DNA from: Escherichia coli
GTDB lineage: Bacteria > Pseudomonadota > Gammaproteobacteria > Enterobacterales > Enterobacteriaceae
Reading direction: 5' to 3' (one strand)
Assembly (NCBI RefSeq): GCF_003334785.1
Contig: NZ_QOWV01000008.1
DNA: 64,000 nt
Shown here: positions 15,735 to 59,403 of the stretch, in pieces
Position numbering within the stretch: position 1 is the first letter of the stretch
Layout: each line of letters begins with the position of its first letter
Position numbers and translations under genes: made by a program
The notes under the pieces: model-generated
Told to the model about the DNA's origin: nothing
The model's input: the letters and a program-made list of their open reading frames with translations, nothing else
Database searches by the model: none

Positions 15735-16010
15735 TCTACTGTGGATAACTCTGTCAGGAAGCTTGGATCAACCGGTAGTTATCCAAAGAACAACTGTTGT
15801 TCAGTTTTTGAGTTGTGTATAACCCCTCATTCTGATCCCAGCTTATACGGTCCAGGATCACCGATCATTCACAGTTAATGATCCTTTCCAGGTTGTTGAT
15901 CTTAAAAGCCGGATCCTTGTTATCCACAGGGCAGTGCGATCCTAATAAGAGATCACAATAGAACAGATCTCTAAATAAATAGATCTTCTTTTTAATACCC
16001 AGGATCCCAG
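15735..16010. other. oriC: chromosomal replication origin oriC
   Basis: DnaA boxes R4 tgtggataa (15740..15748), R3 ttatccaaa (15779..15787), R2 tgtgtataa (15814..15822), R1 ttatccaca (15920..15928). Three AT-rich 13-mers as reverse complements of GATCTnTTnTTTT (15942..15954, 15957..15969, 15973..15985) and an AT cluster (15986..15998). 14 GATC sites between 15725 and 16006. Sequence matches canonical E. coli oriC in reverse orientation. Confidence 0.97.
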
Positions 16011-56913: not shown

Positions 56914-57236
56914 AATTTTTCCAACGCTTCCGAGAGAGCACGGTTATCGAGGTCGGCAACCCCTTTTTTCGCCACCACCACGAAATCCATAGCCGGGAGT
57001 TCATGTTGGCGCAGACGGAAGCTTTCACGCGTCAGACGTTTAATCCGATTGCGTTCATGGGCGCGTCGAACGTTTTTCTTGGCGACTGTAAGACCGATAC
57101 GGGGATGCCCCAGCGAATTCAGGCGGCCGAGAATGGTAATTTGCGGCGTGCCAGCCCGTTGTGGCTGCTGGAAGACGAATGTGAATTGACTGGGAGTTAA
57201 CAAGCGTAACTCCCTGGGAAATGCGAGCTTAACCAC
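56877..57236 (-). CDS. rnpA: RNase P protein component
   Basis: 119-aa basic [21 protein letters not shown]...; overlaps yidD start by 37 nt. Confidence 0.95.
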
Positions 57237-57252
57237 TCAGGGGTTAGCTTTA

Positions 57253-57405
<153 letters not shown>

Positions 57406-57639
57406 CTAAACTTGAATAAATTCAATGGCTTTATTGGATATCCGCCGAAAAATGAAACGATGGACACCGAAGCCATGGGTGATTAAAGAGGCCGGATTGT
57501 AATAATTGTACACTCCGGAGTCAATTCTCTTTCCTTATTTACCGCGCTTTTCCGCACCTTTTCGCAGGGAAAATGTACGACCTCACACCAGTGGAAACCA
57601 GCATGGCGCGCCGGGTGGAGGATTATACGGGCTGATGGG

Positions 57640-57999
57640 TAAAGCGCAAGGATCGTCCTGGATCTTTATTAGATCGATTAAGCCAATTTTTGTCTATGGT
57701 CATTAAATTTTCCAATATGCGGCGTAAATCGTGCCCGCCTCGCGGCAGGATCGTTTACACTTAGCGAGTTCTGGAAAGTCCTGTGGATAAATCGGGAAAA
57801 TCTGTGAGAAACAGAAGATCTCTTGCGCAGTTTAGGCTATGATCCGCGGTCCCGATCGTTTTGCAGGATCTTGATCGGGCATATAACCGCAGACAGCGGT
57901 TCGTGCGTCACCCTCAAGCAGGGTCTTTTCGACGTACGTCAACAATCATGAATGTTTCAGCCTTAGTCATTATCGACTTTTGTTCGAGTGGAGTCCGCC
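57640..57999 (+). promoter_or_regulatory. dnaA promoter region with DnaA box and GATC cluster
   Basis: DnaA box tgtggataa at 57782..57790; at least 9 GATC sites between 57651 and 57876 (57651, 57661, 57672, 57749, 57827, 57841, 57854, 57867, 57873). Confidence 0.8.
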
Positions 58000-59403
58000 G
58001 TGTCACTTTCGCTTTGGCAGCAGTGTCTTGCCCGATTGCAGGATGAGTTACCAGCCACAGAATTCAGTATGTGGATACGCCCATTGCAGGCGGAACTGAG
58101 CGATAACACGCTGGCCCTGTACGCGCCAAACCGTTTTGTCCTCGATTGGGTACGGGACAAGTACCTTAATAATATCAATGGACTGCTAACCAGTTTCTGC
58201 GGAGCGGATGCCCCACAGCTGCGTTTTGAAGTCGGCACCAAACCGGTGACGCAAACGCCACAAGCGGCAGTGACGAGCAACGTCGCGGCCCCTGCACAGG
58301 TGGCGCAAACGCAGCCGCAACGTGCTGCGCCTTCTACGCGCTCAGGTTGGGATAACGTCCCGGCCCCGGCAGAACCGACCTATCGTTCTAACGTAAACGT
58401 CAAACACACGTTTGATAACTTCGTTGAAGGTAAATCTAACCAACTGGCGCGCGCGGCGGCTCGCCAGGTGGCGGATAACCCTGGCGGTGCCTATAACCCG
58501 TTGTTCCTTTATGGCGGCACGGGTCTGGGTAAAACTCACCTGCTGCATGCGGTGGGTAACGGCATTATGGCGCGCAAGCCGAATGCCAAAGTGGTTTATA
58601 TGCACTCCGAGCGCTTTGTTCAGGACATGGTTAAAGCCCTGCAAAACAACGCGATCGAAGAGTTTAAACGCTACTACCGTTCCGTAGATGCACTGCTGAT
58701 CGACGATATTCAGTTTTTTGCTAATAAAGAACGATCTCAGGAAGAGTTTTTCCACACCTTCAACGCCCTGCTGGAAGGTAATCAACAGATCATTCTCACC
58801 TCGGATCGCTATCCGAAAGAGATCAACGGCGTTGAGGATCGTTTGAAATCCCGCTTCGGTTGGGGACTGACTGTGGCGATCGAACCGCCAGAGCTGGAAA
58901 CCCGTGTGGCGATCCTGATGAAAAAGGCCGACGAAAACGACATTCGTTTGCCGGGCGAAGTGGCGTTCTTTATCGCCAAGCGTCTACGATCTAACGTACG
59001 TGAGCTGGAAGGGGCGCTGAACCGCGTCATTGCCAATGCCAACTTTACCGGACGGGCGATCACCATCGACTTCGTGCGTGAGGCGCTGCGCGACTTGCTG
59101 GCATTGCAGGAAAAACTGGTCACCATCGACAATATTCAGAAGACGGTGGCGGAGTACTACAAGATCAAAGTCGCGGATCTCCTTTCCAAGCGTCGATCCC
59201 GCTCGGTGGCGCGTCCGCGCCAGATGGCGATGGCGCTGGCGAAAGAGCTGACTAACCACAGTCTGCCGGAGATTGGCGATGCGTTTGGTGGCCGTGACCA
59301 CACGACGGTGCTTCATGCCTGCCGTAAGATCGAGCAGTTGCGTGAAGAGAGCCACGATATCAAAGAAGATTTTTCAAATTTAATCAGAACATTGTCATCG
59401 TAA
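58000..59403 (+). CDS. dnaA: chromosomal replication initiator DnaA
   Basis: GTG start at 58000 ([18 protein letters not shown]; 467 aa); Walker [11 protein letters not shown]; C-terminal DNA-binding domain. Confidence 0.97.

Follow-up and report, generated by a model that had tools for sequence, protein, structure and literature searches.

RESULTS

The rpmH-dnaA spacer and its flanking genes

The segment studied here, positions 57640–57999 of the window (the whole 64,000-nucleotide stretch of Escherichia coli DNA that was analyzed), is the E. coli dnaA promoter region with the promoters dnaAp1 and dnaAp2. It lies within a 606 bp spacer that separates rpmH, encoding ribosomal protein L34 (57253..57393, minus strand), from the dnaA coding sequence (58000..59403, plus strand), which starts with a GTG and encodes 467 aa. 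The open reading frames and the RefSeq annotation concur that the two genes are divergent around this spacer. The gene order, with yidC-yidD-rnpA-rpmH on one side and dnaA-dnaN on the other, was read from the open reading frames and from the RefSeq annotation of an identical strain, in which ysdD follows rpmH. The spacer showed 100% identity to many E. coli genomes and was found in 5425 of 5426 complete genomes. This is a textbook region whose promoter features have been known since 1982. Every element named in an earlier sequence-only reading of this DNA was described between 1982 and 1999, and the region still serves as a reporter today.

A GATC cluster upstream of dnaA

The sequence-only reading had claimed at least nine GATC sites within about 230 bp upstream of dnaA. 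We found exactly nine in 57640–57999, starting at 57651, 57661, 57672, 57749, 57817, 57841, 57854, 57867, and 57873, and the figure of about 230 bp proved to be the span of the cluster (57651–57876, 226 bp) and not its distance from the start codon. Measured from the dnaA GTG at 58000, the cluster occupies the region between 349 and 124 bp upstream, and there is no GATC in the final 124 bp preceding this codon. The successive spacings are 10, 11, 77, 68, 24, 13, 13, and 6 bp, so that five adjacent spacings are of 6–13 bp and one is of 24 bp. Closely spaced hemimethylated GATCs are given as a requirement of SeqA in the review literature, and the close spacing needed of a sequestration target (pairs within about three helical turns) is present. 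The upstream trio (57651, 57661, and 57672; 57651..57675) has intervals of 10 and 11 bp, close to one turn of the helix; the fourth GATC (57749..57752) lies just 5ʹ of the conserved TTTACACT block, and the downstream trio (57854, 57867, and 57873; 57854..57876) lies just 3ʹ of the p2 start.

Across the 64 kb, 347 GATCs were observed compared to 251 expected, with a mean of 1.25 and a standard deviation of 1.33 per 230 bp. The density scan that had been proposed as a check separated the dnaA promoter from this local background: with 9 GATCs per 230 bp, it is the second highest peak in the window, the first being oriC with 11. When the window was shuffled with its dinucleotides preserved, none of 300 shuffles gave 9 GATCs in any 230 bp, the maximum being 8; uniform re-placement of the 347 observed sites attained 9 in 230 bp somewhere in 36 of 5000 trials. 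Shuffles of the 606 bp spacer alone attained 9 GATCs in 20 of 5000 cases, and within the 226 bp cluster GATC is the commonest 4-mer.

All nine GATCs were kept in three divergent E. coli strains (O157:H7, DA33135, and SK0189), with none of 13 substitutions falling in a GATC. As a separate observation, TCA replaces AAG at 57776–57778 in these strains, which brings the number of GATCs to ten; the added site, at 57774, precedes the DnaA box described below by 8 bp. The same site occurs in Citrobacter and Enterobacter cloacae, and the window represents the nine-site variant.

A second GATC cluster was found within dnaA. The gene contains 15 GATCs, 12 of them at 58698–59195, and reaches 8 in 230 bp (region 58653–59331). 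This corresponds to 10.7 GATCs per kb, compared to 3.6–6.1 in dnaN, recF, and yidC, and synonymous-codon shuffles of dnaA attained 15 GATCs in 17 of 5000 cases. SeqA sites "within the dnaA gene itself" are mentioned in a 2024 primary paper.

Promoters and DnaA boxes on the dnaA side

A scan of 57380–58020 for sigma-70 consensus promoters and terminators called only the proximal rpmH promoter. The promoter prediction that the sequence-only reading had suggested for dnaAp1 and dnaAp2 thus failed to return either of them, and for this reason both were placed from their description in the literature; we infer the exact p1 hexamer, the second DnaA box, and the transcription start coordinates. Reviews locate p1 upstream of the DnaA box, and the candidate p1 −10 is TACACT (57756..57761, plus strand) in a block, GTTTACACT, that is conserved in Enterobacteriaceae, Yersinia, and Acerihabitans. 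On the 3ʹ side of the DnaA box, the order AGATCT, 16 nt, TATGATC, and CCGCGG resembles p2 as known from the literature. The p2 −10 hexamer was placed accordingly at TATGAT (57838..57843, plus strand), which overlaps the GATC at 57841, and TATGATC was retained in 17 of 18 aligned Enterobacterales. It has been described that p2 carries one GATC in the −10 and one in the −35 (a review and the 2024 primary paper), and that its activity is doubled by methylation (review). Transcription from p2 would start approximately at the GC-rich discriminator CCGCGGTCCC (57844..57853, plus strand). CCGCGG is described in a review as a "Travers box" discriminator 5ʹ of +1, and a GC-rich, ppGpp-sensitive discriminator at the p2 start site is described in the 2024 primary paper.

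The consensus DnaA box that had been claimed at 57782..57790 is an exact match to TTATCCACA on the minus strand, the plus strand reading TGTGGATAA. The 64 kb contain just two further exact copies, both in oriC, and box 1 (CCTGTGGATAA) was invariant in all 18 aligned Enterobacterales. According to reviews, the DnaA box between dnaAp1 and dnaAp2 is required for autoregulation, and both promoters are repressed by DnaA. A second high-affinity DnaA box 5ʹ of p2 has been reported (a review and the 2024 primary paper), and Box1 and Box2 5ʹ of p2 act in both activation and repression (2024 primary paper). Our candidate for box 2, assigned from the literature, is TTTCTCACA (57803..57811, minus strand), which matches the 9-mer consensus with three mismatches and a conserved TGTG core; the CTGTG(T)AGAAA block around it is conserved in the alignment of Enterobacterales. 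No further DnaA box with two or fewer mismatches was found at the promoter in a scan of 57600–57999.

The p2 −35 region contains AGATCT (57816..57821), described in a third review as a DnaA-ATP-specific box. It is present in one copy at the promoter and includes the GATC at 57817, and its GATCT core was invariant in all 18 aligned Enterobacterales. Two features of a DnaA-autoregulated promoter are both present here, namely an exact 9-mer box and an AGATCT overlapping the promoter, and repression of dnaA transcription by DnaA-ATP has been reported experimentally (reviews and the 2024 primary paper).

Further downstream, the dnaA 5ʹ leader contains an inverted repeat, AACCG-N7-CGGTT (57883..57899, plus strand), which is conserved in Enterobacterales. 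In Citrobacter werkmanii and E. cloacae it reads AATTG...CAATT, with two pairs changed on both sides. RNAalifold predicted six pairs in the repeat, and 2 of 10 sequences showed compensatory changes at two of these pairs; an Rfam scan of 57200–58200 at E-values up to 1 gave no match. The repeat may represent either a hairpin in the RNA or a palindrome in the DNA.

The minus-strand side of the spacer

A proximal rpmH promoter, TTGACT-17 nt-TACAAT (57496..57524, minus strand), was called by the consensus scan. A published paper mapped dCas9 off-target seeds in "RpmHp2", whose position fits this promoter, and the name implies that an rpmH p1 exists. Upstream of it, the minus strand carries a promoter-like element, TTGCGC-16 nt-TATAAT (57622..57649), in a conserved block (57622–57664, including two conserved GATCs): across the aligned Enterobacterales, ATTATAC was invariant and AAAGCGCAAGGATC nearly so, with at most 2 of 18 rows differing at any column. 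This element was not called by the consensus scan, and its −35 matches the consensus at 3 of 6 positions only. It is probably a distal rpmH promoter, which the name RpmHp2 of the proximal one supports. Its TTGCGC −35 is preceded, at distances of 2 and 12 bp, by the GATCs at 57651 and 57661, and the upstream trio begins more than 100 bp upstream of the inferred p1 −10.

The RefSeq annotation also places a small open reading frame here, ysdD (57623..57703, minus strand; 26 aa, MTIDKNWLNRSNKDPGRSLRFTHQPV), which overlaps the first three GATCs and whose stop codon lies inside the conserved TATAAT. An intact, ATG-initiated ysdD was present only in Escherichia, Citrobacter, and some Enterobacter; among the genera compared, it was absent in Klebsiella sp., Pantoea, Erwinia, Yersinia, Photorhabdus, and others. 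Coding constraint from ysdD was considered as an explanation for the conservation of the first three GATCs and rejected, as most genera with these sites lack the reading frame.

Conservation of GATCs across Gammaproteobacteria

To compare the region across species, one genome per species was scanned with a degenerate pattern for a conserved DnaA peptide, which gave at least 120 gammaproteobacterial loci. dnaA and rpmH were located by tblastn, and GATCs were counted in the 400 bp upstream of dnaA (about 110 regions among the matches listed). Among these matches, the median number of GATCs per 400 bp was 8.5 in Enterobacterales (n = 22), 6 in Vibrionales (n = 11), 6.5 in Aeromonadales (n = 4), 4.5 in Alteromonadales in the broad sense (n = 20), 1 in Pseudomonadales (n = 34), and 0 in Methylococcales (n = 4). 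Within the Alteromonadales matches listed, Shewanella and Pseudoalteromonas had 6–13 GATCs, compared to 1–4 in Colwellia and Alteromonadaceae. When Enterobacterales, Vibrionales, Aeromonadales, Alteromonadales, and Orbales were taken together, the median was 7, compared to 1 in the other Gammaproteobacteria among the matches listed. Relative to the background of their own loci, these five orders were 4.8-fold enriched, whereas the rest were depleted (0.34-fold), again among the matches listed. The order contrast had a Mann–Whitney p of about 1e-15 among the matches listed, a value inflated by shared ancestry and a non-random sample. The orders with enriched GATCs are presumably those carrying Dam, SeqA, and MutH. 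The counts would fit a GATC enrichment confined to lineages with Dam/SeqA.

Positional conservation was assessed with a MAFFT alignment of 18 Enterobacterales spacers. The GATCs at 57651, 57661, and 57817 were positionally invariant in all 18 rows, and that at 57841 was retained in 17 of 18. Retention of the GATC at 57672 was limited to rows of Enterobacteriaceae, Pantoea, and Erwinia, and that at 57749 was conserved only in Escherichia, Citrobacter, and Enterobacter. Those at 57854, 57867, and 57873 were likewise shared by close relatives alone. In the remaining genera, the stretches around these last four sites hold GATCs at other positions, which indicates that density there is maintained by turnover.

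Two insect symbionts, Candidatus Pantoea edessiphila and Pantoea sp. Nvir, had only 1–2 GATCs upstream of dnaA, and in Ca. P. edessiphila the DnaA box upstream of dnaA was also lost. Such low counts would fit a loss of Dam/SeqA control in reduced genomes.

DISCUSSION

Control of the dnaA promoter region by DnaA-ATP and SeqA

We read this segment as the dnaA regulatory region in which DnaA-ATP autorepression is combined with Dam/SeqA methylation control and in which p1 and p2 flank the DnaA box, and we give this reading a probability of about 0.94. Anatomy, enrichment, and conservation were observed in the present analysis, while binding, sequestration, and repression are taken from the literature. 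The match to that literature and the conservation across lineages support what the sequence-only reading had proposed, that the GATC cluster and the DnaA box underlie SeqA sequestration and DnaA autoregulation of dnaA.

The dam and seqA genes fall outside the window, and both systems are established in E. coli (reviews). A review gives "9 GATC sites within 225 bp" at the dnaA promoter. The dnaA region is hemimethylated for about one-fifth of the doubling time in a SeqA-dependent manner (review); prolonged SeqA-dependent hemimethylation of the promoter is credited in reviews to Campbell and Kleckner (1990) and Lu et al. (1994). The 2024 primary paper counts five SeqA-relevant GATCs at p2, one each in the −35 and −10 and three just after the start. 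The sites at 57854, 57867, and 57873 correspond to the three mutated in its "m3SeqA" reporter, in which coupling to fork passage was lost. These three sites, SeqA-relevant by the reporter, are the least positionally conserved of the cluster. As cited in the same paper, mutants without several promoter GATCs keep initiation synchrony, and SeqA repression is reported to depend little on the −35 and −10 GATCs (Wilkinson 2006; Kedar 2000). These findings indicate that the physiological weight of sequestration at the dnaA promoter is modest or redundant.

In the established mechanism, which is also the best-supported account, dnaA would be transcribed from a weak p1 and a stronger p2 on either side of a high-affinity DnaA box. 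Binding of DnaA to box 1 (57782–57790) and box 2 would nucleate a DnaA-ATP oligomer, which would extend over AGATCT and the p2 hexamers and block RNA polymerase, so that at high DnaA-ATP the gene would repress itself. The nine GATCs would serve as Dam sites and would become hemimethylated on passage of the fork, which reaches them about a minute after replication has begun at oriC, 42 kb distant. SeqA on the closely spaced hemimethylated GATCs would then block both Dam and RNA polymerase, with remethylation delayed and the promoters silent for part of the cycle. Such sequestration would reduce the production of DnaA immediately after initiation, alongside the sequestration of oriC, and p2 would be about twofold more active once fully methylated. 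The dnaA promoter region is one of the feedback loops by which E. coli holds replication initiation to a single round in each cell cycle.

Alternative explanations of the GATC cluster

A functionless cluster produced by chance or by base composition would draw on the window-wide excess of GATCs (347 compared to 251) and on the 36 of 5000 uniform re-placements that reached 9 in 230 bp somewhere. However, none of the 300 dinucleotide-preserving shuffles reached this number, the 13 substitutions in divergent E. coli strains spared every GATC, four sites hold their positions in the 18 Enterobacterales (three invariant, one in 17 of 18), and the enrichment is seen again in Vibrionales, Aeromonadales, and Shewanella, although their sequences cannot be aligned. 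Because of this conservation pattern, we consider the chance reading to be ruled out, its probability being close to nil. It is a more serious suggestion that the p2 GATCs are kept as letters of other signals, namely the −35 and −10, AGATCT, and methylation-enhanced promoter strength, and that SeqA sequestration is secondary and not the selected function. The only positionally conserved p2 GATCs are indeed those inside AGATCT and TATGATC, methylation doubles p2 activity according to the review, and mutation of GATCs leaves synchrony intact in the work cited by the 2024 paper. Yet this suggestion leaves unexplained why density, and not position, is kept by turnover 3ʹ of the start site, why the unalignable promoters of Vibrio, Shewanella, and Aeromonas carry 5–13 GATCs, and why the cluster is absent in Pseudomonadales (median 1 among the matches listed). 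The m3SeqA reporter, uncoupled from fork passage, also speaks against it, and we regard it as quite unlikely.

The upstream trio (57651–57675) poses a narrower question, whether it belongs to the divergent side, as part of a distal rpmH promoter or its control or as codons of ysdD, while the remaining sites serve dnaA. We treat this as a tentative possibility, with the assignment of all nine sites to the dnaA cluster preferred. The pair at 57651 and 57661 lies only 2 and 12 bp from the conserved minus-strand TTGCGC-16-TATAAT and precedes the candidate p1 −10 by about 100 bp, ysdD is annotated across the trio, and a published dnaAP2 reporter (−136 to +48) without these sites still senses SeqA. 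The ysdD version fails, however, as most genera with the pair have no such reading frame, which excludes coding constraint. The minus-strand promoter itself is a placement of ours that the consensus scan did not call. SeqA filaments can moreover bridge groups of GATCs, so that the trio may still aid sequestration of dnaA, and the original description, as relayed by a review, counts all nine GATCs as one cluster.

If the minus-strand element is the distal rpmH promoter, the GATC pair may tie rpmH-rnpA transcription to Dam and SeqA. The sequestered region may then be bidirectional, with SeqA silencing the distal rpmH-rnpA promoter together with dnaA; separately, the leader hairpin may add post-transcriptional control. 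We hold this extension to be speculative and rather unlikely. If true, SeqA would transiently silence transcription of L34 and of the RNase P protein alongside dnaA after fork passage.

Comparison with known systems

The closest known system is the E. coli K-12 dnaA promoter (Hansen et al. 1982), which in the account given by the review PMC5835720 is the same locus, with nine GATCs in about 225 bp, the same box between the promoters, the GATCs in the p2 −35 and −10, CCGCGG, and the divergent rpmH. On these points there is no substantive difference between it and the window.

The other GATC peak of the window was identified by similarity search as oriC, between mnmG and mioC at about 15.6–16.0 kb, where DnaA boxes match exactly at 15740 and 15920 and 13-mer-like repeats occur at 15957 and 15973. 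The parallel that had been drawn with enrichment at oriC 42 kb away holds, as the oriC peak has 11 GATCs per 230 bp and lies at about that distance. At both loci, GATCs are densely clustered and TTATCCACA boxes occur in exact form, and both are reported to be sequestered by SeqA. They differ in that oriC is an origin and the dnaA region a promoter. oriC is also denser, with 11 GATCs per 230 bp and 17 per 360 bp, and contains several DnaA boxes and AT-rich 13-mers. Sequestration lasts about one-third of the doubling time at oriC, compared to about one-fifth at dnaA (review). In E. coli strain 120899, an offset of 42 kb from the dnaA promoter leads into the atp operon and not to oriC. The dnaA-oriC spacing of this strain is thus several kb different from that in the window, which points to an insertion or deletion in between.

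Among other Gammaproteobacteria that presumably carry Dam and SeqA, Vibrio, Aliivibrio, Shewanella, Pseudoalteromonas, Aeromonas, Oceanisphaera, and Plesiomonas had 5–13 GATCs within 400 bp of the dnaA start among the matches listed, at short spacings, many of 4–24 bp, and with a DnaA-box-like 9-mer in all those inspected except Aeromonas caviae. The upstream sequence of these genera cannot be aligned with that of E. coli, nor do the GATCs hold the same positions or the box the same orientation. The rpmH gene of Vibrio, Photobacterium, and Aeromonas lies about 2.8 kb from dnaA, compared to about 0.6 kb in E. coli, with other genes in between. The GATC cluster is still directly upstream of dnaA there, although the region is not an rpmH-dnaA spacer.

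The Pseudomonas rpmH-dnaA spacer, which is the replication origin of Pseudomonas, shares its gene arrangement with E. coli and likewise bears consensus DnaA boxes. In Pseudomonas and Stutzerimonas, it typically carries four (1–5) exact TTATCCACA boxes among the matches listed, in keeping with an origin there, but only 0–4 GATCs, fewer than its own background. Pseudomonas is not known to carry Dam or SeqA. To the picture already available for E. coli, this comparison adds a quantitative one, in which the cluster appears to track the lineages with Dam/SeqA, fixed GATCs are distinguished from those that turn over, and the upstream pair possibly belongs to the rpmH side.
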